Source: Botryllus schlosseri
Lineage: Eukaryota
Assembly: GCA_051294905.1 (NCBI GenBank)
Contig: CM119373.1
Coordinates: 3,474,001-3,534,000 of the forward strand
Reading direction: 5' to 3'
Length of the DNA: 60,000 bases
A program made the position numbers and the translations under genes. The notes under the pieces were generated by a model, which was given only the letters and a program-made list of their open reading frames with translations, made no database searches and had not been told where the DNA came from. Shown in pieces: positions 1 through 50,360 of the stretch (its first letter is position 1; every line of letters begins with the position of its first letter).

Positions 1-1241
1 CATTATGTTTATTACGACTTACTATGGGCAGTTGAGCAATCTGAGCATATTCTAGCTCCTCTGCGACGTTTTCGTTCATATGTAGCAACATAATGCTGGG
101 TGATGTTTAGAACTATCACAATTTAACAACCGCGGGTGCAAGGTACAGGTACAGGTAAATGTTATTTCGCGAATACACAGTATCATTAATCTTCTGCAAC
201 GTCCTCTCGATATTTGTCGTCTTGCGTGACTTGTATCTGGACTCTGAAGTCGTGCGTTGCCATTGGTCATCACTTACATCGGTTTACTGAAATTCCTAGC
301 GTTACAGCAGCAGCACAGGAATGACTGAAGATTAAAATATATCAGCATAGTGTCCTACTGTAGTACGCTATATAATATCAGTCTCTACTCACGGGTTAGG
401 GCTTCCGACACGACAAAAAGGGTTCAAGATGAATAATTGAATATATACGCATCTCTGTTAAAGAACTAGTTCGTAATTGATCGCCATATTAATCGTATAG
501 TCCTTGTGAATGTGCAATTGTGCATTGTGCATTGTAGTACAATACACGATTGTTCGTATGCAACAATCTTTCCAATTCTGTACTAGTTGCTTAACGATTA
601 ACCCTGGCGATTGTCAGCCGAAAGTACTCGTATTTTTATCAAAATGAATATAATGTTCAATTGTATATTGTGCATAGCGCAAGTTCAACTTGCAAGAAAA
701 TAACTATGCGTCTTTTCAGAATTTTAGACCGTATGTAGCGTACGTCTGCGTTCACAACGCTGAACTGCAGTAAATCTACTGTCAGCTCTCGTATGCTATA
801 ACGGTGAAGACTGTAATAGCTTTCAGCGACTAAAGCATTTAACGGGTGAGCGACATGGTGTGGAAACTATTTATTACTAGCACTCCTATAAATTATAAAT
901 GAGTGCGTTTGAAGGGGTTGCGGAGATGTGACGAAATGATTATATTATTACTGCCGGTATATGCCTAAAGTCTACGCTTGATCAATGCTCTCTGGCGATA
1001 CTTGACAATTACTACGCTTTGGTCATACTCATACTGATTTGCGTGGGTTGTATACTGAGTGTAATCAAGTTCAATCAGCGGCATGTGAAGCAAATCACCA
1101 GGATTTCACCCTTTCCATGTCTGGAGGAGTGGGTGTCGAGCATCGAGTCGCTTTTCTACCAACATCCATCGATTATAAATTGAACTTTGCGAGAAGCCAA
1201 ACAGTTAATGAGAGAAATATCATTGAATTAGCCGTCTAGCA

Positions 1242-1721
1242 GAGTGTTTCTCAACCGGGGGTCCGCGAAACCTCCAAATTTGCAAAATGGTTAACAACCG
1301 TATCCATATTTTTTAATTAGAGAGATCACATGGCAGTTTCGCTTCATGCCTGCTTAAACTTCGGGACTCACATTAACAGAATGCTGGCCGTCTGAGAAGA
1401 AATGTTCTACTGAGCAAACTTTTTCAGCAAACTTTTTCAGGATGAGCTGCTAGATAGAAATGACGAGACGTTTAATGTTCTGTTTTTCTCATTTTTTGCC
1501 ATATATATCTTACCCAAAGGTGTTGTCTGAAGACATACGCGTAATTATTACATTCTCCAACACCTTTCTTTATGAAAATAGATTTTCCGCACTTGATCAC
1601 TAGCCTATACATCTAATATTTGCATGATGGTTGCACGATAATTGAGCTAAATTTGAGCCAAAACTTCGGGTTCCGTGACGGTCCAAAGGGGTTCGTGGGG
1701 ACAAAAAGGTTGAGAACCATT
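1242..1721. mobile_element. Non-autonomous hAT (Buster/Charlie-like) element
   Basis: Ends (g)AGTGTTTCTCAACC ... GGTTGAGAACCATTG. Degenerate 8-bp flanks gtctagca/atctagtc. Related copy starts near 29335. Confidence 0.65.
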
Positions 1722-1852
1722 GATCTAGTCATTTCACCCCCTGTCTCTCAAAATCGCTTGAGTAAGGGTCAGTATCGTTCATTTAGGAAACACTGATCAA
1801 ACTATTGATGCAGTTGTGCGTAAAGCGCATATTACCCTGATCAGCGTATAAG

Positions 1853-2210
1853 CAGACTTGGACAACTAGATAATTATAGCTGTCCAATAATACTAATTAG
1901 AGCGAACTACCGGTCATCAAATTCTAATCTAATTTCAGAAATGTTTGTTGGCTCTAATTTCAATTCTGATCAAATTTGTGAAATGTTTCTATGGTCTAAT
2001 CATAATTATAATTCAATTCCTGGTTTTCCTGAAACGCTAGATGAGAACTGCCTAGTGTGGGCCGAGCCAAGCTTGCTGTACACTGTACGTACAGCGTATA
2101 GACATTTGTCACTCTCATGCTTCGCGAATTCAGTTATTCTAATTCTAATCCAATTAAAAAAAATGTGCAGCTTTAATTCTATTTCTAATCTGATTTGGTA
2201 AAGCTGAAAA
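1853..2210. repeat. Dispersed AATTAG/CTAATT-rich repeat family (unclassified)
   Basis: Reverse-complement similarity to ~20865-21215, ~23540-24145 and ~52460-52850. Shared blocks include gcagacttggacaact, gacaaatgtctg and aaacatttcacaaat. Confidence 0.6.
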
Positions 2211-2477
2211 CTTTTTAATTGCGACCAAGTGGTGTCGTAGAAAAGCCTATAAAAGCGGGCCGTGCTACAAGTCGGCAGTTACGGAATGATAATTAAGAAT
2301 GTCGCTCTGGTGATAATCACCGTTTTAGTCGAAAAACATCATGGATATTACAAACAACAGCAACCCGTCCCTTATGTATTCAGCTTTGGCGACATGTTTC
2401 AATGTTAAACTGCTTGGTATAACTGTGGCGAATTCTACAGGTACAGTAGCGAAACACGCACTATAGCACAACACTAG

Positions 2478-2573
2478 ATGGACGATTTCGGCGTCAAAGA
2501 GATTGCAATCAACGTGGTCGTAATCATGGGACTGCTGGTGCTGATATACGTCGCTTTCAATGTGCTGGAATGA
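2478..2573 (+). CDS. Putative 31-aa single-pass membrane micropeptide (sarcolipin/phospholamban/regulin-like)
   Basis: Translates to MDDFGVKEIAINVVVIMGLLVLIYVAFNVLE*. In-frame TAG immediately precedes the ATG. Acceptor-like aattctacag ends at 2440. Third codon positions are mostly G/C in an AT-rich background. Hydrophobic stretch of about 19 residues. Confidence 0.55.
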   Translation: MDDFGVKEIAINVVVIMGLLVLIYVAFNVLE

Positions 2574-3328
2574 ACCAATCGAACTACACACCTTAAAGCT
2601 TGATATCCAAACGCATCATCTTTACCACTCGCAGTATTTTTGTGTCGACGCGTGTAATAACAATTTCCATGTACCGCTTTCAAGAAAAAGCTACAATGAC
2701 AAGTTTCGTGGTGTGCCACCTGATAGTCTGCGCACTTGCGGGGTGAATTATACGCAAATATATATATATTTTCTGAACCGCCGGTGGCGCTATGGTTTAA
2801 CGTTGTAGAATATGTGAGTCGAATAGGTAAATGTGAGGTTGCGCTGTATTCTAACGCTACGTTCATGCTTTGAGTCTCTGTCACGGGTCTAGAGTGCTGA
2901 GGGTGCATAAAACAAGGCATCTGAACGGTTCCAGATTAACAACAGCGTGATATCTACTCACAGGTACAATGGGGCCTGTCTGACACATAGGCTTACACGG
3001 CTATATCCAACTACAGGAGTGAAATATCACTCTTGCTGAAGAACAGTTGTATCATCTCATCTGGCGACAATTTTGGTTGCTTGAGTATTGTGAGACGCGA
3101 CAATGAGCGTTGCATATACTATAATAGATATAAATATATTATTATATAGTAATACACTGTCAGTTGACTTGGCAGTTGGCATACAACTGATACAATCTTG
3201 TTTCCTTCGATTACCCGATTTGTGACGCTGACGAGAATCTATATCATCACCTAGCGGTAGTCGAAAAACGTACGTAGTGTATGTTAAGTAATATTATTAT
3301 GTTTCCTTATTCGCAGTAACACTGGTAA

Positions 3329-5347
3329 ATGACAGGGTATGACAGGGTATGGCAGGGAGCAATAGTGTATAAACTCCATAGTCTTGGTATTCGCGGTAGT
3401 TCGTTACGTTGGTTGAACTCCTTCCTTAAACATCGGTCATTTCAAGTTAGAATTTTAGATCAGCTGTCTGATACTTTCCATACGACAAATGGCACACCAC
3501 AAGGAAGTATTTTAAGCCCAGTTTTGTTTGCAATCATGATGAATGACTTACCCGTAGAAGCCACTTGTCATATCAACCTATACGCAGACGATATATGTAT
3601 TTACGATTCAAACTTGAATGCGTTGGACCTCCAGCAAAATATACAGCACTCCTTGAAGAAGGTTGCTAATTGGTGTAAAAAGTGGGGATTGAAAATAAAC
3701 TTGAGCAAATCGGCTGCCATGCTATTCACGAGAAGGCGCAAGCCCGCAAATTTTGAGCTATCTCTCGATGGGTCGCGGATCCCGTTCGAAAGAGAATTCC
3801 GGTATCTGGGCATCACGTTTGATTCTAGACTTACCTACCGGCAACACTCCCGTCAAGTAGCTGAAAAATGTAGTAAGCGCCTGAATATCCTACGGTGTCT
3901 GCGAGGCACATCCTGGGGTGCGTCTACGTCATGCATGATATTACTTTATAGGGCCATTATTCGCTCCATAATGGAATATGGACTCGAGGCATATTTTATA
4001 GCACCGAAGTATGTCAGTCAAACCATACAGAAGATACAAAACTCTGCTCTAAGGCTCTGTAGTGGGGCAATGATTAGCACCCCAACGATCGCGCTACAGA
4101 CTTTTTGTAACGAATTACCGATACATCTTCGGCACCTGCAAGCATGCGCCGCATACCGGTGCACAATATTGTGCCAACCTAGACACCATTGCTTATCGGT
4201 AACACAACACTCCTGGCACGAAATTTTTCCAGACTCGGAAAATTTCAAGACATTCAATATGATATCTAATATAGACCCGCTCAGAAACATAAAACTCACC
4301 CGAATTGAACCCGCTTCTGTACCCCCATGGATTCCTTTGGAAATTTCAGTAGACCTAAGTCTTGGCTCGAAGACCTTGAACATCGAACACCCCGATGCAA
4401 TCAGAATTGAGTGCGAGGAGTATATGTCTACCCACTACAATCATCATTTGGCTATATATACTGACGGTTCAAAAACTGACCAGGGATGCGGTGCCAGCTA
4501 CTACATCCCAACACTTGGTGTCTCTTTCAATCTTTCCTTGAGTAGTTTAAAAAGTGTGTACTCTGCGGAGCTTATCGCCATCAAGGAAAGCCTGTTGTGG
4601 GCATGCAGTAACTGTCCATCAAACTCAGATATTGCTATTTTTACAGACAGTCAAAGTGCGACCAAAGCCATCGAACAAAGACTCAACGAAGGCAACATGG
4701 TTATCGATGACATCATTCAGTGTATTTCTCGTCTCTCGTCAAGCGGCAGCCGCACAACAATTATATGGATCCCGGCTCACAAAGGAATAGTAAACAACGA
4801 AGTGGCGGATAGGCTTGCTAAAGCTGCAGCGAACATTGTTAACAATGGAATGGAAGTGATTTCGCTGACGCTTAGCGAATGCAAATCCATGATATCAGAC
4901 TTCTGTCGCACAAAATGGAAAAAGGAGATACGGGATCGGGAAACGAGCTCCAGATATGTTCGCCTGGTGAATTCGGTCGGTGCAACCTCCCAGCTACACG
5001 AACTGACTCAGCGTGAAAACTCTATCCTTATTCGGCTTCAAACAGGTCACTGTCGACTAAATGCACACCTGCACCGAATTGGCCAGCATGACAGTGGTCT
5101 CTGTGAACGATGCCACGTGCCCGAAACGTTAGAACACTTCATATTTACATGCACGCGTTACCGAGCACAAAGAGGTTACCTACTCGGTAGGTGTAATCTA
5201 CAACAACTTCCAACGGACCTTCACGTACTACTGAACAATCCTATAATGGTACATCCATTAATAGATTATGTGATTTTGACCGGAAGGGGATATAACCCCC
5301 AAGCAACCCTCCCATTCAGGCCTGGCGCACAAAGCCCTAGTTGCTGA
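3329..5347 (+). CDS. Truncated non-LTR reverse transcriptase with RNase H
   Basis: RT motifs GTPQGSILSP and YADD. RNase H motifs YTDGSK, SAEL, TDSQ and WIPAHKGIVNNEVAD. Zinc knuckle CERCHVPETLEHFIFTC. The ATG is created by the TSD/element junction. Confidence 0.88.
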   Translation: MTGYDRVWQGAIVYKLHSLGIRGSSLRWLNSFLKHRSFQVRILDQLSDTFHTTNGTPQGSILSPVLFAIMMNDLPVEATCHINLYADDICIYDSNLNALDLQQNIQHSLKKVANWCKKWGLKINLSKSAAMLFTRRRKPANFELSLDGSRIPFEREFRYLGITFDSRLTYRQHSRQVAEKCSKRLNILRCLRGTSWGASTSCMILLYRAIIRSIMEYGLEAYFIAPKYVSQTIQKIQNSALRLCSGAMISTPTIALQTFCNELPIHLRHLQACAAYRCTILCQPRHHCLSVTQHSWHEIFPDSENFKTFNMISNIDPLRNIKLTRIEPASVPPWIPLEISVDLSLGSKTLNIEHPDAIRIECEEYMSTHYNHHLAIYTDGSKTDQGCGASYYIPTLGVSFNLSLSSLKSVYSAELIAIKESLLWACSNCPSNSDIAIFTDSQSATKAIEQRLNEGNMVIDDIIQCISRLSSSGSRTTIIWIPAHKGIVNNEVADRLAKAAANIVNNGMEVISLTLSECKSMISDFCRTKWKKEIRDRETSSRYVRLVNSVGATSQLHELTQRENSILIRLQTGHCRLNAHLHRIGQHDSGLCERCHVPETLEHFIFTCTRYRAQRGYLLGRCNLQQLPTDLHVLLNNPIMVHPLIDYVILTGRGYNPQATLPFRPGAQSPSC

Positions 5348-6046: not shown

Positions 6047-7512
6047 CGTTAGTGATGGGGTGAATCAAATTCGAAATGTAAGAACTATTTTGTCTGTATG
6101 ACGTAATAATAACAAAAACAAACAACTAGTAGACGGGCTAGATACGGTAGTAACGGTACAAAACAAACGTTACGAGTACATATTCGGTTATAAATAACCG
6201 AAAACACAACACATAACATTAATGAAATATTCCAAGAGTGTAGAGGCGTTCCTTCTGGCGACAGAGAATCGGCTTTCGTAGCTTTATGATCGTAGATTCC
6301 AGGACCTTTAAATGAAAAAGAGAACGGCCACGAGCAAGTATAGAAAATTGACTGTCGTTGTAATGATCAGCACAATCTGGATGGGATAAGAGATGCTGTC
6401 CAATAGCCGAATTACAAGCAGTAACTTGATCATAATCACGCAGTGTGTCAACAGACTGCGATGAAGGAGTTGGAGAAACATTATTTATTCTAATTTGCCG
6501 TGGGACATGCTGGCGAATTCTTTGCTGCAAGCGCTGAGACGTGCGACCTACATACCGACTGTCACATCGGCACGTGTATTCATATATTATATTGCTTTGA
6601 TTTGTCGCAGGTAGCACATCCTTTTGTGTTGCAGGCATCAGAGATTTCGTCGTGAAGATTATCTGAGGTTCTACTTGTGAAAAACAATGGCTCACTGACG
6701 ATTTAATTTGTTTTTCAAACCTGTTGGACACTTTCCCAATCCAAGGAAGATGCAAATAAACAGGACATTTTCTAGGTCCGAACGGTTTAACGGTCCTGTT
6801 TATTTGCATCTTCCTTGGATTGGGAAAGTGTCCAACAGGTTTGAAAAACAAATTAAATCGTCAGTGAGCCATTGTTTTTCACAAGTAGAACCTCAGATAA
6901 TCTTCACGACGAAATCTCTGATGCCTGCAACACAAAAGGATGTGCTACCTGCGACAAATCAAAGCAATATAATATATGAATACACGTGCCGATGTGACAG
7001 TCGGTATGTAGGTCGCACGTCTCAGCGCTTGCAGCAAAGAATTCGCCAGCATGTCCCACGGCAAATTAGAATAAATAATGTTTCTCCAACTCCTTCATCG
7101 CAGTCTGTTGACACACTGCGTGATTATGATCAAGTTACTGCTTGTAATTCGGCTATTGGACAGCATCTCTTATCCCATCCAGATTGTGCTGATCATTACA
7201 ACGACAGTCAATTTTCTATACTTGCTCGTGGCCGTTCTCTTTTTCATTTAAAGGTCCTGGAATCTACGATCATAAAGCTACGAAAGCCGATTCTCTGTCG
7301 CCAGAAGGAACGCCTCTACACTCTTGGAATATTTCATTAATGTTATGTGTTGTGTTTTCGGTTATTTATAACCGAATATGTACTCGTAACGTTTGTTTTG
7401 TACCGTTACTACCGTATCTAGCCCGTCTACTAGTTGTTTGTTTTTGTTATTATTACGTCATACAGACAAAATAGTTCTTACATTTCGAATTTGATTCACC
7501 CCATCACTAACG

Positions 7513-7552
7513 TTCGCTACTGATGAGAGTTAGTCGAAAAGCTTTTAGCGAA
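7513..7552 (+). ncRNA. Minimal type I hammerhead ribozyme
   Basis: Stem I TTCGCTA/TAGCGAA, core CTGATGA, 2-bp stem II, GAAA, palindromic AAGCTT in place of stem III. Followed by AATAAA and the ORF ATG. Confidence 0.87.
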
Positions 7553-7564
7553 TAAATTAACAAT

Positions 7565-10117
7565 ATGAAGTTATTGTTTCGCGTTATTCTGAAGTTCTGT
7601 ACCACAAATCACTTGTTCAAATACTTTCGCAAAAGGTACAGTGACCAACAATTGGAGATCCTTAATAAGTTGGTCAGAACTCGGGGGAAAATTCGAAATC
7701 TGCGGTATCATGTAGCCTTTCTTAAGGCTTGTATAAAGAAAAGAGTTGTACCAAAGTTTCTGAAGACGAGGATAGAGAAATCGCGTGCTCGCATCAACTC
7801 CAGGATTGAGAGTGCATTTTTACATGATGAGATCGAGAACAGCATAAAAGAGATGAGTACCGTAACGCAACGTTGTGCCAAGCTTAAGCAGCAGGCAGTG
7901 CAGTTTTTATCTTATTTTGACCTGATACGGTTTTGTCGTTATATGGCCAAAATTGATGCACGTAAAGAGGATGAGAAGGTACGGCAGAATGAGCGTAACA
8001 TCAGCTTGCTTCTCAAGACACGATACGGTACCAAGGCAGTTGCTGGTAGTAAGGTTATTACCAACTTATCGGACTATGAGCTGAGTGGCACAGAAGAGTT
8101 GGTACTATCTCTTGGTCTTGATTTTTCTGTGCCACCGACAGAAATCAAGCGTGAGGAAGTCTTTGCTGAATTTGAGGTATTACTTGGACAATTGTCACAT
8201 CATCACCAGAAATTTGATGATGAAAGCAGAGCAAAGGAACACAGTGAGAAAATTGTGGCCCTTAAAGCCAAACTAAGTAGCTTAGCGCATGGTTTTTGTG
8301 GAACTCCAATCGACAGAAGTGATTTCACGATGACGTCCGATTGCTACAGGAGCATCAGATCCCTGAAATCCAATAAGTCAATTCACATAACCAAACCTGA
8401 TAAAGGATCTGGTGTAGTCATTTTGAATAAGTGTGACTACATTTCTAAAATGGATTTAATTCTCGGCGACAAGTCTAAATTTGAAATCCTTGGCCCTGCG
8501 TGTGACAATGACAACACCTCCAAGATAGAAGCTCGTATTCAGCGTCTACTATTGACCCTCAAGAAGGCGGGAAAAATCTCTTCTGCTGAATACGACGATA
8601 TCAGACCCACTGGCTCCATTCGACCACGTATGTATGGTCTTCCGAAGACCCATAAATCGAATGTACCCTTACGTCCGATACTATCGATGGTTGGATCAGC
8701 GTATCACAAAGTCGCGAAGTGGATTGCGAGATATCTTGAGCCGGTGAGTTTGCTCTATGGTGGTAACTGCATTCGTGACTCGTTCACATTTGCTGATACC
8801 ATTCGTAATGTTGATCTCGATGAGTCCGAAATCTCTATGTGTTCGTTTGATATATCTAGTTTATTCACGAACGTGCCAGTTCAAGAGACTATAGAGATTT
8901 GTGCCAATGAACTCTATGGTGGTGTCCTTCCATCTCCTCCATTCTCAAGGTCTTCTTTTGTTAAATTAATGCGATTGATCACTTGTGATGTCGAATTTAG
9001 TTTCAATAACACCATATATACACAAATCGACGGTGTTGCAATGGGATCGCCGCTTGGTCCCATTCTGGCTAACATTTTTGTGGGGTATTACGAAAAACGG
9101 TTATTCGAAGATATTGATCGACCATTAATGTATCAAAGATATGTTGATGACACCTTCGCCATATTTGAAAATGAATCCCAGTGTGATTTGTTTCTGAGCA
9201 AATTGAATGGTCTTCACCCATCACTGAAATTCACCATGGAAAAAGAGGTTAATAATTCATTAGCATTCCTTGATGTTTTAGTGGAAAAGACGGGTGCTAA
9301 TTTTGTTACATCAGTTTACCGTAAGCCTACATTCAGTGGGCAATACATTTCGTGGGATTCTTTCTGTCCAGTAAAACGTAAAGTAAATTTGATAAGAACT
9401 CTGGTACACAGGGCTCTGATGATATGTAGTAAAGTCAAACTTGATTCTGAATTGGAGAACATTCGGTCAATCTTTCAGTCAAATGGTTATCCTGATCATA
9501 TCATTAAAATGACCATAGATCGTAAACTCAAAGATTTCAGAAAAGTTAAACCGTTCGGACCTAGAAAATGTCCTGTTTATTTGCATCTTCCTTGGATTGG
9601 GAAAGTGTCCAACAGGTTTGAAAAACAAATTAAATCGTCAGTGAGCCATTGTTTTTCACAAGTAGAACCTCAGATAATCTTCACGACGAAATCTCTGATG
9701 CCTGCAACACAAAAGGATGTGCTACCTGCGACAAATCAAAGCAATATAATATATGAATACACGTGCCGATGTGACAGTCGGTATGTAGGTCGCACGTCTC
9801 AGCGCTTGCAGCAAAGAATTCGCCAGCATGTCCCACGGCAAATTAGAATAAATAATGTTTCTCCAACTCCTTCATCGCAGTCTGTTGACACACTGCGTGA
9901 TTATGATCAAGTTACTGCTTGTAATTCGGCTATTGGACAGCATCTCTTATCCCATCCAGATTGTGCTGATCATTACAACGACAGTCAATTTTCTATACTT
10001 GCTCGTGGCCGTTCTCTTTTTCATTTAAAGGTCCTGGAATCTACGATCATAAAGCTACGAAAGCCGATTCTCTGTCGCCAGAAGGAACGCCTCTACACTC
10101 TTGGAATATTTCATTAA
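7565..10117 (+). CDS. Penelope-like RT + GIY-YIG endonuclease, 850 aa (copy 1)
   Basis: RT motifs KPDKGSGVVIL, YGLPKTHK, LRPI, SFDISSLFTNVP, GVAMGSPLGP and RYVDD. GIY-YIG region IIYEYTCRCDSRYVGRTSQRLQQRIRQH. Confidence 0.96.
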   Translation: MKLLFRVILKFCTTNHLFKYFRKRYSDQQLEILNKLVRTRGKIRNLRYHVAFLKACIKKRVVPKFLKTRIEKSRARINSRIESAFLHDEIENSIKEMSTVTQRCAKLKQQAVQFLSYFDLIRFCRYMAKIDARKEDEKVRQNERNISLLLKTRYGTKAVAGSKVITNLSDYELSGTEELVLSLGLDFSVPPTEIKREEVFAEFEVLLGQLSHHHQKFDDESRAKEHSEKIVALKAKLSSLAHGFCGTPIDRSDFTMTSDCYRSIRSLKSNKSIHITKPDKGSGVVILNKCDYISKMDLILGDKSKFEILGPACDNDNTSKIEARIQRLLLTLKKAGKISSAEYDDIRPTGSIRPRMYGLPKTHKSNVPLRPILSMVGSAYHKVAKWIARYLEPVSLLYGGNCIRDSFTFADTIRNVDLDESEISMCSFDISSLFTNVPVQETIEICANELYGGVLPSPPFSRSSFVKLMRLITCDVEFSFNNTIYTQIDGVAMGSPLGPILANIFVGYYEKRLFEDIDRPLMYQRYVDDTFAIFENESQCDLFLSKLNGLHPSLKFTMEKEVNNSLAFLDVLVEKTGANFVTSVYRKPTFSGQYISWDSFCPVKRKVNLIRTLVHRALMICSKVKLDSELENIRSIFQSNGYPDHIIKMTIDRKLKDFRKVKPFGPRKCPVYLHLPWIGKVSNRFEKQIKSSVSHCFSQVEPQIIFTTKSLMPATQKDVLPATNQSNIIYEYTCRCDSRYVGRTSQRLQQRIRQHVPRQIRINNVSPTPSSQSVDTLRDYDQVTACNSAIGQHLLSHPDCADHYNDSQFSILARGRSLFHLKVLESTIIKLRKPILCRQKERLYTLGIFH

Positions 10118-10289
10118 TGTTATGTGTTGTGTTTTCGGTTATTTATAACCGAATATGTACTCGTAACGTTTGTTTTGTACCGTTACTACCGTATCTAGCC
10201 CGTCTACTAGTTGTTTGTTTTTGTTATTATTACGTCATACAGACAAAATAGTTCTTACATTTCGAATTTGATTCACCCCATCACTAACG

Positions 10290-10329
10290 TTCGCTACTGT
10301 TGAGAGTTAGTCGAAAAGCTTTTAGCGAA
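10290..10329 (+). ncRNA. Minimal hammerhead ribozyme with core substitution (CTGTTGA)
   Basis: Same as the other copies except A>T at 10300, conserved core position A6. Confidence 0.8.
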
Positions 10330-10341
10330 TAAATTAACAAT

Positions 10342-12894
10342 ATGAAGTTATTGTTTCGCGTTATTCTGAAGTTCTGTACCACAAATCACTTGTTCAAATA
10401 CTTTCGCAAAAGGTACAGTGACCAACAATTGGAGATCCTTAATAAGTTGGTCAGAACTCGGGGGAAAATTCGAAATCTGCGGTATCATGTAGCCTTTCTT
10501 AAGGCTTGTATAAAGAAAAGAGTTGTACCAAAGTTTCTGAAGACGAGGATAGAGAAATCGCGTGCTCGCATCAACTCCAGGATTGAGAGTGCATTTTTAC
10601 ATGATGAGATCGAGAACAGCATAAAAGAGATGAGTACCGTAACGCAACGTTGTGCCAAGCTTAAGCAGCAGGCAGTGCAGTTTTTATCTTATTTTGACCT
10701 GATACGGTTTTGTCGTTATATGGCCAAAATTGATGCACGTAAAGAGGATGAGAAGGTACGGCAGAATGAGCGTAACATCAGCTTGCTTCTCAAGACACGA
10801 TACGGTACCAAGGCAGTTGCTGGTAGTAAGGTTATTACCAACTTATCGGACTATGAGCTGAGTGGCACAGAAGAGTTGGTACTATCTCTTGGTCTTGATT
10901 TTTCTGTGCCACCGACAGAAATCAAGCGTGAGGAAGTCTTTGCTGAATTTGAGGTATTACTTGGACAATTGTCACATCATCACCAGAAATTTGATGATGA
11001 AAGCAGAGCAAAGGAACACAGTGAGAAAATTGTGGCCCTTAAAGCCAAACTAAGTAGCTTAGCGCATGGTTTTTGTGGAACTCCAATCGACAGAAGTGAT
11101 TTCACGATGACGTCCGATTGCTACAGGAGCATCAGATCCCTGAAATCCAATAAGTCAATTCACATAACCAAACCTGATAAAGGATCTGGTGTAGTCATTT
11201 TGAATAAGTGTGACTACATTTCTAAAATGGATTTAATTCTCGGCGACAAGTCTAAATTTGAAATCCTTGGCCCTGCGTGTGACAATGACAACACCTCCAA
11301 GATAGAAGCTCGTATTCAGCGTCTACTATTGACCCTCAAGAAGGCGGGAAAAATCTCTTCTGCTGAATACGACGATATCAGACCCACTGGCTCCATTCGA
11401 CCACGTATGTATGGTCTTCCGAAGACCCATAAATCGAATGTACCCTTACGTCCGATACTATCGATGGTTGGATCAGCGTATCACAAAGTCGCGAAGTGGA
11501 TTGCGAGATATCTTGAGCCGGTGAGTTTGCTCTATGGTGGTAACTGCATTCGTGACTCGTTCACATTTGCTGATACCATTCGTAATGTTGATCTCGATGA
11601 GTCCGAAATCTCTATGTGTTCGTTTGATATATCTAGTTTATTCACGAACGTGCCAGTTCAAGAGACTATAGAGATTTGTGCCAATGAACTCTATGGTGGT
11701 GTCCTTCCATCTCCTCCATTCTCAAGGTCTTCTTTTGTTAAATTAATGCGATTGATCACTTGTGATGTCGAATTTAGTTTCAATAACACCATATATACAC
11801 AAATCGACGGTGTTGCAATGGGATCGCCGCTTGGTCCCATTCTGGCTAACATTTTTGTGGGGTATTACGAAAAACGGTTATTCGAAGATATTGATCGACC
11901 ATTAATGTATCAAAGATATGTTGATGACACCTTCGCCATATTTGAAAATGAATCCCAGTGTGATTTGTTTCTGAGCAAATTGAATGGTCTTCACCCATCA
12001 CTGAAATTCACCATGGAAAAAGAGGTTAATAATTCATTAGCATTCCTTGATGTTTTAGTGGAAAAGACGGGTGCTAATTTTGTTACATCAGTTTACCGTA
12101 AGCCTACATTCAGTGGGCAATACATTTCGTGGGATTCTTTCTGTCCAGTAAAACGTAAAGTAAATTTGATAAGAACTCTGGTACACAGGGCTCTGATGAT
12201 ATGTAGTAAAGTCAAACTTGATTCTGAATTGGAGAACATTCGGTCAATCTTTCAGTCAAATGGTTATCCTGATCATATCATTAAAATGACCATAGATCGT
12301 AAACTCAAAGATTTCAGAAAAGTTAAACCGTTCGGACCTAGAAAATGTCCTGTTTATTTGCATCTTCCTTGGATTGGGAAAGTGTCCAACAGGTTTGAAA
12401 AACAAATTAAATCGTCAGTGAGCCATTGTTTTTCACAAGTAGAACCTCAGATAATCTTCACGACGAAATCTCTGATGCCTGCAACACAAAAGGATGTGCT
12501 ACCTGCGACAAATCAAAGCAATATAATATATGAATACACGTGCCGATGTGACAGTCGGTATGTAGGTCGCACGTCTCAGCGCTTGCAGCAAAGAATTCGC
12601 CAGCATGTCCCACGGCAAATTAGAATAAATAATGTTTCTCCAACTCCTTCATCGCAGTCTGTTGACACACTGCGTGATTATGATCAAGTTACTGCTTGTA
12701 ATTCGGCTATTGGACAGCATCTCTTATCCCATCCAGATTGTGCTGATCATTACAACGACAGTCAATTTTCTATACTTGCTCGTGGCCGTTCTCTTTTTCA
12801 TTTAAAGGTCCTGGAATCTACGATCATAAAGCTACGAAAGCCGATTCTCTGTCGCCAGAAGGAACGCCTCTACACTCTTGGAATATTTCATTAA
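10342..12894 (+). CDS. Penelope-like RT + GIY-YIG endonuclease, 850 aa (copy 2)
   Basis: Translation identical to copy 1, offset by 2777 bp. Confidence 0.96.
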   Translation: MKLLFRVILKFCTTNHLFKYFRKRYSDQQLEILNKLVRTRGKIRNLRYHVAFLKACIKKRVVPKFLKTRIEKSRARINSRIESAFLHDEIENSIKEMSTVTQRCAKLKQQAVQFLSYFDLIRFCRYMAKIDARKEDEKVRQNERNISLLLKTRYGTKAVAGSKVITNLSDYELSGTEELVLSLGLDFSVPPTEIKREEVFAEFEVLLGQLSHHHQKFDDESRAKEHSEKIVALKAKLSSLAHGFCGTPIDRSDFTMTSDCYRSIRSLKSNKSIHITKPDKGSGVVILNKCDYISKMDLILGDKSKFEILGPACDNDNTSKIEARIQRLLLTLKKAGKISSAEYDDIRPTGSIRPRMYGLPKTHKSNVPLRPILSMVGSAYHKVAKWIARYLEPVSLLYGGNCIRDSFTFADTIRNVDLDESEISMCSFDISSLFTNVPVQETIEICANELYGGVLPSPPFSRSSFVKLMRLITCDVEFSFNNTIYTQIDGVAMGSPLGPILANIFVGYYEKRLFEDIDRPLMYQRYVDDTFAIFENESQCDLFLSKLNGLHPSLKFTMEKEVNNSLAFLDVLVEKTGANFVTSVYRKPTFSGQYISWDSFCPVKRKVNLIRTLVHRALMICSKVKLDSELENIRSIFQSNGYPDHIIKMTIDRKLKDFRKVKPFGPRKCPVYLHLPWIGKVSNRFEKQIKSSVSHCFSQVEPQIIFTTKSLMPATQKDVLPATNQSNIIYEYTCRCDSRYVGRTSQRLQQRIRQHVPRQIRINNVSPTPSSQSVDTLRDYDQVTACNSAIGQHLLSHPDCADHYNDSQFSILARGRSLFHLKVLESTIIKLRKPILCRQKERLYTLGIFH

Positions 12895-13066
12895 TGTTAT
12901 GTGTTGTGTTTTCGGTTATTTATAACCGAATATGTACTCGTAACGTTTGTTTTGTACCGTTACTACCGTATCTAGCCCGTCTACTAGTTGTTTGTTTTTG
13001 TTATTATTACGTCATACAGACAAAATAGTTCTTACATTTCGAATTTGATTCACCCCATCACTAACG

Positions 13067-23800: not shown

Positions 23801-26788
23801 CCGATATTAATATAATAATTATAGCTACACAGTTTTCTCAAATTTGACTAGAATTAGAATTATAGCTAAACAGTTTTTTTCGAATTAGCTTAGAGTCAGT
23901 GAATTCGCGACAATTTGTAAATTAAATCACGTTCAGTTTGTATCAAATACGAGCCATTGTCATAAGCGTGAGAATGACAAATGTCTGCACAGCAAGATGC
24001 TCGTTTCGCACTATACTGTTCTCTAGCATTTCGTGGAAAACCGTAAATTAAATTAAAATGAGATTTGAATTAAGAGTAAAGAAACATTTCACAAATTATA
24101 GTAGATTACCGATTGGTCGCTCTAGTTGGTCTAATTTAGACAACTGCGACTGATACTTGTTTGTAAGCATGAGTTCGAGTGACAAAGCGTACTTAGCGCG
24201 TGAATATAGGCCCTAATCACCGACGTTTCGCATCGGTGAGACGATGACGTAATGGCAGGCAGTTCATTTGTGTACGATGTGTAACGATCATGTCGTTGCA
24301 TTTTCGCCTTAAACCTCCAAACGGCTACAAATCAAAATAAGTCTTATCCAAATTAAACGTGTTGATGAGTTGCTTACTATACGCCAGGTAGGACGATTCA
24401 GAATATTCGTACTTCGACATAGCTGCTATGGAGCGAACTTGACTCGCAACAAATTGTATTGCTATCATTTTCGAAACATCAGTCAAAATCAAAACAAAAT
24501 GTGTAATCCTACTTAATCTACCAGCTCATTATCTATAATAATAATAATAATTAATGAGTGTAAAATTGACGATATGAGCGGAAAAAGGTACATCGTCTAC
24601 TCATGCGCCAAAGGTTAGCAAAGAAGAATGTTTCAGATAGCTTTGTTTGAATGGTGTCCGAAACAGCTATACCTTTACGGATCTAATAAACGTTTCGTCA
24701 ACGATTTACTGCAGCGTATATAGAATAGCGCTATATATAACCCAATCTAATTCTGCGGCCTACATTCCGCGCATGGCAGAAGCATTGCAAGATCAAAAGA
24801 ACTGAAGAAGCATCTAGAGCTGTTCGAGATACCGGCTGATGTAAGGGCATATGCGTGTAGTCTTAAGTATCTCTCGTCCGTTCGCTATCTATCTAACTAA
24901 CTTCGAAAATGATATTATGCTCACTACGTCATTGACGTTTACGGATAGCGGAGATGGGCGTGCCAGCGCAAGTCGATTCGTGCATTTTATTAGCTGCGGA
25001 TGTCAGTTAAAGGATGCCGATTTAGTTAATAGTTGTAAGTCAGCCCGAGTCACGAGTGGATGTTAAATAATAAGTATGCGAGTCAAGTATGCATTGAGTT
25101 TTAGAACCTTATGTCGAAACACTGAAGCAAAATCTACTAAGATCTGTATTCAGCCGGATATTGGTAGTCTGCATCTACTACGTTTATTTTGACATTGTAG
25201 CATTCTGAATATGTTTCGACAGATAGAGCAACGTTTGTGAATTTTCCTTAACGTTACATATACCAGAAGCATGATTTTTCCAATGCCCTATGATAAGCAG
25301 TCTGGTTATAGTACCCATGCTGATTAGATTTTCATCGATCTTGAACAGAAACTATTAAATCTATCGCAGAGAAACCATGACATTTTTTGATCGCAGCAAT
25401 CGTCACCGAAACAATATTGTTTTTGCGTATCTACGTCCTTACGCAGTCCTTTGAAGTGGGTTACTCATCGCGTGCAATGTGAGTCAATAGGGCGAGAATA
25501 TATGAAGTCATCTCATCGCGCCTGTGCGCTAAGCGCAGACTCTATTCGAGCGAGTCGTATTTACTCGTAAATCGCAGTGCAGTGACAGCGGCATTACAGT
25601 GTCAAACAGTCTTCTAAATCAAACATGAATGTGCTGATTTCGCTCTGGTGGCGGGGTCAGGTATGCAGTAATGAGACTGGAGAGTTCAATTGAGGTAATA
25701 TTGTACTGGTTAATTTTGTCGAGTATTTTAATCAGTGTCAGTGTGTATTCATGCCCCAGTGCCACATAATATCGGTTGGTTTACAATGAACCAGTCTCGA
25801 TTCTTTTTGAATAGGAATCCAAAGATCAGCCGCCATACATACATAAGCTCCTTTGCGTATTAAACGCGTTAGCAAACTTGAAAACGAACTGAACCGAAGT
25901 TTTAATGTGGATCTGGATATTCAAGTATGCTAGAAACCACAAGACGTTAGGAGTAGTATCTATAAACAAAATTTACCGGATATGAACGAATAGAGTGAAT
26001 ATTATACCAGTAAGGTAGCTTTAGTATCCTGGAACAGGAAAGGATGATACATTGATATAGAATACTAGTCATGTAGCCTATGATAACCGACGCAGACTAT
26101 CCTTATTGGCGCATATATTATATTCTCGCTGTCCGCAGTTAAAGAGAGAGAGCGTAAAACCGTGGAATGAGGAATTTCGTGCTAAAATGACGAAGAACAG
26201 ATCGTACCGCATAAAGCACGATGGCGTAACATGTAACCATTCTAACGCAGCGTAGTCAGTGTAGGAGCTTGACATCTGAGCAGATAGAGCGGTCGGTAGT
26301 AATACTATGCTCAATTTCAGCCATATTATTAGTCACTGTCCCTAACGGCGGTTATAAATCTATCTCAAAAGCACGATTTTAGCATATTGACGAGTGTTAT
26401 TCGGTGTTACATTAGAAACCAGCAACGCGATATCATCTCAAAGCGCCGCAAGACTTCGATAAAATAAAAAGATAGGAAGTTGTCGAAACGACATGGAGTA
26501 GTCTTTGAAATCATACACCCACCTGGGCGGCTGGGCCAAGGCGACGTAAAGAAGAGGCATGTATTGTAGACACTGAACAGTAGGTGGGAATAAATAAGGG
26601 ATAACATAAATCGACTAGTGATGAAAACGAATGACGCATGTGTCGATATTTACAACTATTCATCTTGATTTTGCGTGGAATGCTTGTAGAGATTTGATTT
26701 CCTATTTCTGTAACGTTGATCCAACTCCATTTTTTTGCAACAGTTCTTCCTCGTTCATTAGTATCCTAGTTCAACCCGAAATAGCAAT

Positions 26789-26986
26789 ATGACCTGGAAG
26801 CAAGGACTGTGCGGCTGTTTCGGAAACTGCAGCTTGAGCATGATTGCATGCTGCGTGGCGCCTCTGTCGATCGGCAAAAACGCAGAAGCGGTCGGTGAGG
26901 CACACCCTGTGTTGTGGGCGATTTCAGTTGCGGGCGCGCCTTGCATTGCCGGAGCATTATTGCGTGGACTAATCCGGAAAAAGAAG
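26789..26986 (+). CDS. PLAC8/cornifelin-family Cys-rich protein, coding exon 1
   Basis: MTWKQGLCGCFGNCSLSMIACC...LRGLIRKKK. Donor AAG|GTAATT at 26986/26987. Upstream acceptor ttttttgcaacag ends at 26743. Confidence 0.9.
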
Positions 26987-27713
26987 GTAATTACCTTTCG
27001 AAGGGCTGCATGTTTCACGATTTTCAATGGAATCTCAGGAATGTGCACCAACGAAAAGCATACGTCGTGGTATGCAATGGCGGAAGTCCTTAAGGCGTAT
27101 ACACAGTTCTCGATGTCAAATGATGCGCATAAGATCAAAAACGAGTGCAGTAGACGACGCCATAAGGATGATGAAATCGATCACTGACGATTTGTCACTT
27201 ATGATTACGCTAATTATGTCAATCGGCAGTGTTGGCCGTGCTACCGGTACTATGTTTGTGGCCAATCTATAGGAGATGCAATATATATCCTTGGGGATTC
27301 GAATGGACTAAGACAAAGCATGTTACCTTCATGATGTCGAATGTGGGTCAGATGCACGGTTGTAAAAACCCATTGTGCGTGTCGCCCGAGTCGCACCCAT
27401 TCCTGTGTGATTAGCAAAGCGCGGGAGAGTTGAGTTGTCGTTTCATACAGCCGCAGCAGACCGTGGCGGTAAACAATGAAGCCGCGAATCTGTCGGAATG
27501 CAGAGCGAGTCGCGCTCACAGCGATTTCGCAAAAATCTAATTTGCTGCTACGCTCTTATTGAGAAATACTCATAAATTGTAGACCGGTTCGTCTGGCGGA
27601 GGCTTTGGCTTCGCCCTGAATACAGCTATATATAGACCTACCATATTTTCAGAACCCCGAAATAGGACATTTTTGTAAGCAAGTAAAATGAAAGTAGAAC
27701 TGTTAGTTTGAGT

Positions 27714-47483: not shown

Positions 47484-48483
47484 ATTAGTACTAAATCGAA
47501 TAGAATTTGACAAAATATTAGTCCGTGTCTTACACAGGATATATTGGAAATTTCAACGAAAACGACACATCTAAAATATGAAATTTACTTACGAAATCAC
47601 AAACAAAGAAGGAATTCGACATCTTCATTACACGCGGACATACGAGATGATTACAGATTTACGAAATGTGCTTTGCAATGACATAGAATTGTAATTGAAT
47701 CGAATTAAATTTGGCAAAAAATTATACGCTCGTGCCGCACATAGGATATATTAGAATCTTCAACTAAAACGATACATGTAAAATATGACATTTACTAGAG
47801 ATGGTGTGAGCCACAGAACGGTTCAGGTTCGCGGGAACGCGAACGTGAACCTATGACGTCACGTCACACTGTCGATCACAGCCCGACATTTCAGTGAAGT
47901 GATATAATAACGAACAGTGTGCACGATACCTAGCGACATTATGCAACAATTCTGAAGTATACGTGTTGACTTTTTGAAAGCAATTGGAGTAATCAAGATG
48001 TTTTGACATTAGACAACGATGTATTCATATCAATTTCATTAATTGGTTGAATAAGCATCATTACCTACATGTAGGGTATTTCGTTCTTGATGTTGTGTGA
48101 TTGCTGGTCAAGCTCACAGCAGAAAGTGACGGAATATTAATTCATAGAAAGCTGAATATTTCGAGCATACTTTTGTAACAAAGCAACTAAAATTATTGAG
48201 ATTGGCAAGGTATAGGTGCATGTTTTGTTTATGCTGCCAGCGCCATGCATAGAGCGTTCTGAAGTTGAAATGCAACGAATTTCAACCAAATGCTATACTG
48301 TCGTGATAAATTGTAATATATCAAAAGGGTTCACAATGCAGAACCTATACCAAGGTTCGTTTCTGATCGTGAACCTCTAATTTCCTTAGTTATATAATAT
48401 GGGCTGCTTCGTTTGGAGTGCATGCATGTTAAAGAATTATGTAGTTATTTAAGTCTGGTTGGATTCAAACGAAATACACTTAC

Positions 48484-48633
48484 TTGCATTCTTTATTCGT
48501 ATATAAAAATCGTCGTCCTCAGCACCCCAACCCCAGTAGATATTTGAATAACCGTTCGATAGGACATACTGCGTGTGGGTCGCCATAGACACCCCGCCGA
48601 AGCTCATGATGCGGTTGTTGCGCATATCCTTAC
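48484..48633 (-). CDS. GT7 gene, coding exon 3
   Basis: Reads SFGGVS...NGYSNIYWGWGAEDDDFYIRI. Donor A|GTAAGT. Confidence 0.92.
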
Positions 48634-48694
48634 CTTAATTACAGGAAAAAGCGCATAAAATATCGATTTCAGAATTGCCAAGATTCGTATTAAC

Positions 48695-48856
48695 CGTTGA
48701 AAGAGCATTGCACTGAATAGTCGAGCTTTTTGTACCCGAATATATCGATGTACATCGACAAATGTAGGGGATGTTCGGTATCGCAGAGGTACATGCACTG
48801 GTCGTTTTCCAACAGTAGATCCACATCGTGAAACACGAAACAGTCGTACTGTTCGT
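48695..48856 (-). CDS. GT7 gene, coding exon 2
   Basis: Acceptor catttcag. Reads YDCFVFHDVDLLLEND (DxD motif)...PLHLS. Phase 1 at both ends, followed by a 61-nt intron. Confidence 0.9.
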
Positions 48857-49088
48857 CTGAAATGCAAGTTGGTGATGTCGTCTCGGTGAAGGTTTGAATT
48901 TAACTCGAAATGAATCGTTGAAACAAATATTTTAAATGTATGGTTGTTTGGACGGCAGTTCGATTTCTTGTCAGTACGACGAAGCACACTTGTACAACTA
49001 GATAACGCTAGTAGTCAGTTACGCTAATTAGACCGTAAGTTTCTCCCGGGTTAATAAAACTACATTAACGTATTCTTATTATGTTTAC

Positions 49089-49545
49089 CTTTGCTTGCTT
49101 CAGACACTCCCGCGTTCAGTAACTTGCCTCTGTTGAACAACTCCCCGTCTATTTGGTTGATCACGTAGACCCGGTACTCAATTAGCTGCCGCTTCCATAT
49201 CGGGTGCATATGGGAGAGTAATGTGCGCAATTGCGATTCCCTGTTTCGAAGCGGAATGATGATCGCAACCTTATATTCTGATTTACAGTTTGGCGGAGAG
49301 AAGCCACCTCCATGCAATAGTCCGAAACTAGCTTCTGTTATACTTATCGACGAATGCGCAGCTGACAAAGTGGGAATTTTCACTCTTCCCAACAGGTCGT
49401 GTCTGCTGCAACTTGTCTGATTATGATTCCGAGCCACCTGCCACCATCCGGAGCCTTGCGGATACAGAAACAGCGATGATAATACTATGCTCAACGCAGT
49501 TAACACGCACAACATAGCGAATAAAAACACTGCTGTTTTCCACAT
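49089..49545 (-). CDS. GT7 gene, coding exon 1 (type II signal anchor + stem + catalytic N-part)
   Basis: N-terminal TM helix. KVAIIIPLRNR and YVINQ...FNRGKLLNAG motifs. Donor G|GTAAAC. The joined exons give 1059 nt / 352 aa in frame. Confidence 0.93.
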
Positions 49546-50360
49546 GGTTGTGAGGCACCGTTAGGCGGATTTGAGTATAAACTCTCATATACTATACAGG
49601 TTATTGTCACGTGAACGAGTGCATGTGCGCTGAGAAAATATATGAAGATTAGACTATATGGGTAATCCAAGCTAGGTCTGTCACTGATAACAGTCGACAA
49701 TGCGTATCAAGGTTACCATATATTGACATTCGGAAAATAGGTTAATTTTCCCCGTACAATCGTCTGGCTGCTGTCAGAACTATAAAGGATGACGAGTTGC
49801 CAAAAAGAGGACATCCGGAAGCCTTCCGAGGACCTTTTCGATTTCTGGAAAAAGAAGGACAACTCCTTCCGGAGGACGTATTTTTGTGAATCGAATTATG
49901 GGCACTCTTTTGCGCCCACTAGCGGATTTTACAATCGGGTATGGACACGTTGTCTGTCAATATGACGTCACACTAGCAAAGCTTCGCCTGTCGAGTATAT
50001 ACAGGAGTGGAATGAAACATAGGTTTTGAATTGAGCCATCTCTAATGTGAGCTCTGGTGATTGCATGGGTCTGCAACAGATTTCTTCACGGGCCGGACGA
50101 AATCGTCTGGTGGACCTTATCCGGTCCGCCAGTTGTGTGTTTGACAGCCCTGCTATACTGTGAGGTCGGTGAGGTTATCTGGTTGTGTGTTGTAACCAGC
50201 TCCGAAACAACATTTTTCAGCCACCTTTCGCCCAAAAAAGCACTTATCTTGGGCCCATCATGGGGTAATCCATGCAACCTCAAGCGGGCTTACTATAAGC
50301 ATCTGCTTGGTAAAATTTGTGAATGAATTCTGTCAATAATGTTGGTTCTTCCATATAGAC

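Follow-up and report, generated by a model that had tools for sequence, protein, structure and literature searches.

Does a 31-codon open reading frame in the genome of the tunicate Botryllus schlosseri encode a micropeptide that regulates the calcium pump SERCA? SERCA-braking micropeptides have been described from arthropods and vertebrates, and the vertebrates' sister group is the tunicates. The frame lies on contig CM119373.1 of assembly GCA_051294905.1, within a stretch of 60,000 nucleotides (positions 3,474,001 to 3,534,000 of the forward strand) that was analysed as a whole and is referred to here as the window; coordinates are those of the window unless a contig is named. A first-pass annotation had proposed, from the sequence alone, that the frame is an unannotated gene for a divergent invertebrate regulin. 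The micropeptide gene is real, backed by splicing, transcription and composition, and weakly by polymorphism. Its features are as follows.

790-845, + strand: non-coding exon 1, supported by 18 X21 reads whose loose ends match 818-845, by the X22 joint and depth, and by an X8 contig piece at 795-846
846-2440, + strand: GT-AG intron of 1,595 nt, with donor GTGAG and acceptor TTCTACAG, skipped by eight X22 reads from six starts
2441-2790, + strand: exon 2, made up of 37 nt of 5′ UTR, the entire coding frame and a 3′ UTR of about 215 nt, supported by RNA depth in X15, X17, X21, X19 and X22
2478-2573, + strand: micropeptide frame of 31 codons, from translation and from hydropathy and GC3s statistics
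2496-2513, + strand: K7-E8-I9-x-x-N12 segment, whose register agrees with that of Arg6-Glu7 and Asn11 in sarcolipin and of Asn34 in phospholamban
2502-2558, + strand: predicted membrane helix core, residues 9-27, with a hydropathy of 2.82 and one predicted helix

The RNA evidence consists of raw reads only. Five of the six raw RNA runs (X15, X17, X19, X21 and X22, from three studies) cover approximately 2441-2790, and no reads were placed from the sixth (X24), which therefore provides no test. Entry of a spliced transcript at 2441 was confirmed by reads joining 845 to 2441. The X22 reads themselves join 846 to 2443, and because allelic differences at 2442-2443 explain this joint, the bounds of the GT-AG intron were set at 846-2440; X1 contigs break at 844 and 2440. 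The acceptor noted at first pass 37 nt upstream of the frame, either for splicing or for trans-splicing, was thus retained as the former: its AG ends at 2440 and is used with the GT donor at 846, in cis and not in trans. Trans-splicing at 2441 is unneeded, since a cis donor is in use, and a leader further upstream may exist. The + strand was assigned from the splice signals; second mates of the single-cell run X15, which in such libraries are sense, also lie on + over the frame.

Both transcript ends are approximate. Reads over exon 1, which holds a two-codon ATG-CTA-TAA at 793-801, reach back to about 790-795, and RNA depth over exon 2, in which no AATAAA occurs, falls to zero near 2790-2840, with nothing past 2840. 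At the frame start, X21 reached a depth of about 40 per 1,497 million letters, compared with about 7 per 1,382 million for X22 from the same study, a difference of about six-fold per base read. No MEF2 or CArG site was found in the 2.4 kb upstream of the first intron, and the intron contains short dispersed repeats. No Rfam family reached its gathering score in 300-3300; a weak CRISPR-repeat match at 1792-1828, under the gathering score, was set aside. An X1 contig of 432 nt, which ends at 392 and extends upstream of 300 with a TATA-like TATATAA nearby at 369, may belong to an additional 5′ exon or a different transcript, or may be DNA.

The frame itself carries several coding signals. Its 31-residue translation is exactly as first reported, and an in-frame TAG directly precedes the start codon, as had also been stated. 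The reported GC3 richness was reproduced, with G or C at 19 of the 29 synonymous third positions (66%; window GC 41%, binomial p 0.006), a higher share than in all 56 other hydrophobic short frames (mean 0.36); because the two single-exon SERCA genes of the same genome have GC3s values of 46% and 57%, the frame is high but only a little beyond what real genes show. A scan of 180 kb gave 929 Met-started frames with lengths of 25-55 aa, and in best 19-residue hydropathy this one ranks above all the others. The frame is single-copy at both the protein and DNA levels in the 495.5-Mb host genome, and the peptide, which ends in the tail N28-E31, contains no Ser, Thr or Cys. AlphaFold predicted one helix spanning residues 3-30 (pLDDT 93.7), as any such peptide would give. 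Among the four in-frame variants listed, three are silent and the other is V25I (p 0.05-0.09 for three of four being silent), and the listed variants amount to one replacement in about 72 sites versus 15 variants in 254 UTR bases (p 0.096); no indels or stops were found in the frame among the listed variants of the five covering RNA runs. The listed polymorphism thus lends weak support to a coding frame.

Resemblance to known regulins was scored with ten landmarks around the key Asn, eight taken from the portions consulted of published papers (PMC8396278; 10.1101/2020.07.19.211243; PMC13707140), the other two being Phe after the Asn and Asn as an alternative to Glu. The key Asn is preceded by a basic residue five places and Glu four places ahead (K7, E8 and N12), so the K-E-x-x-x-N register described at first pass is present; the [KR]ExxxN pattern occurs in 5 of 531 short frames. 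With N12 placed on sarcolipin Asn11, exact matches at K7, E8, N12 and I16 gave 4 of 10, a score equalled by 32-38% of shuffles. Widening to chemical classes added I9, Y24, V25 and F27, giving 8 of 10, which was reached by 204 and 708 of 100,000 shuffles (p 0.002-0.007) and by control hydrophobic frames in 2 of 55 and 0 of 30 cases (2 of 85 in all); because the widening was chosen after seeing the peptide, we read this match as roughly tenfold support. An eight-position relaxed motif (0 of 25,000 shuffles) was not used, as two positions had been dropped after seeing the peptide.

The size and helix of the peptide agree with the sarcolipin, phospholamban and sarcolamban family (about 28-52 aa, one membrane helix), and several finer landmarks are absent. 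Leu three places before the Asn and Phe right after it are replaced by I9 and V13. The annotation had cautioned that the Phe residues that sarcolipin carries around the Asn (the LFxNF motif) are replaced, and this holds, as Ala and Val stand in their places. Trp-Leu-Leu near the luminal end is represented by Y24-V25-A26, which keeps the aromatic only; the luminal RSYQY tail is absent; and a phospholamban-type cytosolic Ser/Thr kinase switch is lacking. According to the part consulted of one study (10.1101/2020.07.19.211243), Trp23 of sarcolipin and Tyr29 of bumble-bee sarcolamban both pack at Pro952 of SERCA, the Trp-Leu-Leu motif is common to sarcolipin and three sarcolambans, and sarcolambans, which have no RSYQY tail either, still inhibit. 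The positions of Trp23 and Tyr29 correspond to Y24 and F27 in the helix core of the peptide, and its residues 22-24 (LIY) recur at the luminal end of fly sarcolamban A as given in the consulted part of PMC9338278.

Set beside individual systems, the peptide shares with sarcolipin (SLN, PF05366) a length of 31 residues, a short polar N-terminus, a single helix, the basic-Glu pair followed at the same spacing by Asn (Arg6, Glu7 and Asn11 versus K7, E8 and N12), and an aromatic residue, Y24, at the Trp23 position. The vertebrate sarcolipin gene has a non-coding first exon and its frame in exon 2, the same layout as here. Unlike sarcolipin, the peptide gives no profile match, has YVA in place of WLL, and possesses neither an RSYQY tail nor a single Ser, Thr or Cys residue. 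Its Ile, Asn, Ile and Leu correspond to Leu31, Asn34, Ile38 and Leu42 of phospholamban (PF04272); it differs in that a cytosolic helix and kinase sites are missing, the Ile40 zipper position is occupied by Gly, its gene is not nested in CEP85 and the profile does not match. Like arthropod sarcolambans (SCLA and SCLB; SLB of the bumble bee, the water flea and the tadpole shrimp), as far as the published descriptions consulted go, it has Lys where the helix starts (Lys9 in the bumble bee), an aromatic residue, F27, at the Tyr29 position and no RSYQY tail (10.1101/2020.07.19.211243), as well as LIY near the luminal end as in SCLA (PMC9338278). In comparison through those descriptions rather than by direct alignment, it differs from the three tested sarcolambans in lacking the conserved Trp-Leu-Leu; the gene is single here. 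Myoregulin, DWORF, endoregulin and another-regulin belong to the same single-helix class of SERCA partners with weak mutual likeness, according to the parts consulted of PMC8396278 and PMC8087094, and lack the Asn that the peptide has. OST4 (PF10215) and FXYD (PF02038) are likewise short single-helix partners of membrane enzymes, and neither profile matches the locus.

Homolog searches did not place the peptide in any family. Its exact sequence is absent from a collection of 15 billion proteins; it matched no Pfam family of any kind, even at E 10; and no relatives were found among PDB sequences, among 1.84 billion representatives or by Foldseek against the PDB. In the Atlas, the best value was 0.83, to bacterial small-protein clusters and at chance level, and recognition was 2218, below the 2300 mark, which says nothing on whether the gene is real. 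Such searches are low-powered because only 31 mostly hydrophobic residues are available. The profile comparison with known regulins, which the annotation had proposed as a check, went against it: PF05366 and PF04272 miss the locus even at E 10, and their genome searches returned four and eight weak places, respectively, none at the locus and none over the cut-off. The similarly short OST4 was found easily, since PF10215 identified the genome's own OST4 on C10 (E 1.2e-13), so a sarcolipin with good conservation would probably not have escaped notice; by the same token, with no other sarcolipin- or phospholamban-like gene over the cut-off, the regulin slot in this genome is open. The peptide is not OST4, which has this separate ortholog and whose profile has no match at the locus, nor FXYD, as PF02038 gave five weak places, none at the locus. 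Alignments among known regulins are themselves poor: in the part consulted of PMC8087094, only about a third of pairs agree with the published ones, and profile failure therefore lowers family membership more than function.

Gene order provided no further link. The vertebrate sarcolipin and phospholamban genes lie beside SLC35F and ELMOD genes or inside CEP85-type genes. In Botryllus, SLC35F is on C2, ELMO/CED12-domain matches are on C9 and C15, CEP85 is on C11 and the peptide is on C3, so the expected synteny was not found; ascidian gene order is reshuffled, which makes this a weak test. CEP85 appears as a single 586-aa open frame (C11:15414032-15415789), apparently leaving no coding intron in which a peptide gene could be nested as it is in vertebrates. 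None of 30 hydrophobic frames in the 80 kb around CEP85 and SLC35F scored above 6 of 10, so that no better candidate for a regulin came from there. As to nesting in a host gene, no exons of a coiled-coil host were conspicuous.

The genome has two single-exon SERCA frames and a spliced SERCA gene on C2 near 33.2 Mb.

C13:7487365-7490364, + strand: SERCA, 999 aa, no intron in the coding frame
C7:9667090-9670098, − strand: SERCA, 1,002 aa, no intron in the coding frame

The C13 SERCA is 89% identical to that of Styela clava, 86% to that of Halocynthia and about 82% to that of Ciona; a tree built from 30 of the 64 aligned SERCAs places it with Styela. The groove was compared at 31 chosen positions, part of them taken from papers. 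The C13 SERCA is identical to primate SERCA1 throughout (31 of 31), including the equivalents of Gly801, Thr805 and Pro952; the C7 SERCA keeps 23 of 31. The C7 protein sits on a long branch paired with a Styela paralog and, despite its 8 groove changes, keeps the calcium-site and phosphorylation residues. The groove is well conserved too in the eight other tunicate SERCAs displayed, so that of the C13 pump permits the peptide but does not single it out. Ciona SERCA is reported in tail muscle and papilla cells in the part consulted of PMC7397655.

By analogy with sarcolipin, we give about even chances to the reading that this spliced, transcribed mini-gene encodes a likely translated, single-helix ER/SR membrane micropeptide that slows SERCA. 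The peptide is too short for co-translational targeting and, by general rules, would thus be inserted after translation with its N-terminus in the cytosol; a very hydrophobic helix with an acidic tail points to the ER rather than mitochondria. The helix would then lie in the M2/M6/M9 groove of SERCA, where N12 may contact the Thr805 equivalent (T804 of the C13 pump) and Y24 and F27 may pack at the Pro952 helix, with a predicted fall in the apparent calcium affinity or turnover of the pump. As Ser and Thr are absent from the peptide, its control would come from abundance instead of a kinase switch. The idea of a divergent regulin thus survives in part: aromatic residues at the Trp23 and Tyr29 positions, a non-coding exon 1 and an intact SERCA groove speak for it, and the profiles, exact landmarks, Trp-Leu-Leu, phosphorylatable residue and vertebrate synteny against it. 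The peptide probably works like a regulin, yet we do not file it as sarcolipin or phospholamban, because the profile, Phe, Trp-Leu-Leu and tail tests failed.

Two other readings account for part of the same evidence. The transcript could be spliced yet non-coding, its short hydrophobic frame being incidental and free of selection, a view that accommodates the lack of a homolog in any search, polymorphism tests not firmly under p 0.05, an upstream two-codon ATG that may precede the frame, and the sub-threshold Atlas recognition (by a mark uninformative on the reality of a gene). We consider it improbable, because the frame ranks first among 929 for hydropathy and among 57 for GC3s, begins 37 nt into a used exon and shows no listed indel or stop in five covering runs, and no Rfam family reaches its gathering score there; the frame is very probably translated. 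A more serious contender, to which we accord somewhat less than an even chance, is a translated single-helix micropeptide that serves another membrane partner (a pump, a channel or an ER complex) or acts alone, its sarcolipin likeness being chance on a shared architecture. Splicing, transcription, variants and composition fit this equally well, the exact landmarks are at chance, the control frames contain equals in class score, and neither the sarcolipin and phospholamban profiles nor synteny gives a positive result; on the other hand, the class-level register match is uncommon among shuffles, and the two obvious small-helix families are excluded, with OST4 having its own gene on C10 and FXYD giving no match.

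Our literature search, which covered listings and abstract beginnings and does not establish absence from print, found no tunicate regulin. A term search in a tunicate muscle review (PMC6589888) gave no occurrence of sarcolipin, phospholamban or SERCA, and the part consulted of PMC10058886 names only sarcolamban as an invertebrate orthologue. If SERCA is indeed the target, a tunicate regulin would fill this gap and would allow a test of whether phospholamban's switch by adrenergic phosphorylation was added in vertebrates; as a natural variant that keeps the Asn without Phe, Trp-Leu-Leu or RSYQY, it would also test what inhibition really needs. If the peptide is not a regulin, its gene is still clearly delimited and expressed, and encodes a micropeptide without known relatives. 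A bolder and rather unlikely version holds that the gene is the tunicate descendant of a single chordate regulin gene behind sarcolipin and phospholamban, minimal, kinase-insensitive and too diverged for the vertebrate profiles, which would act on the C13 SERCA and which the fast-evolving C7 paralog, with its altered groove, may escape.

Transposon pieces surround the peptide gene. A zinc-dehydrogenase gene is located 25-40 kb upstream of it, and a PLAC8-like frame 24 kb downstream. Features of the window downstream of it are as follows.

3329-5347, + strand: LINE-type frame, truncated at its 5′ end, that includes reverse transcriptase and RNase H; the peptide transcript ends about 540 nt before it
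6200-13030: Penelope-like units in tandem, including two 853-aa frames that are identical, plus a partial copy in inverted orientation
26762-27187, + strand: PLAC8-like frame (Pfam E 2.8e-7, below the cut-off)
48458-49560, − strand: glycosyltransferase family 7 (B4GALT-like) gene

Nesting of the peptide gene in the B4GALT-like gene was rejected, since the 7C exon of the latter (48458-48604) is near its first exon. The 7C domain has 43 genome matches listed, which suggests a large expansion, and the second half of the PLAC8-like frame appears to run off the family profile. Upstream of the window, two minisatellite arrays (L003:6890-8383 and L004:6075-7548) are near-identical, lie in opposite orientation and are about 9 kb apart.
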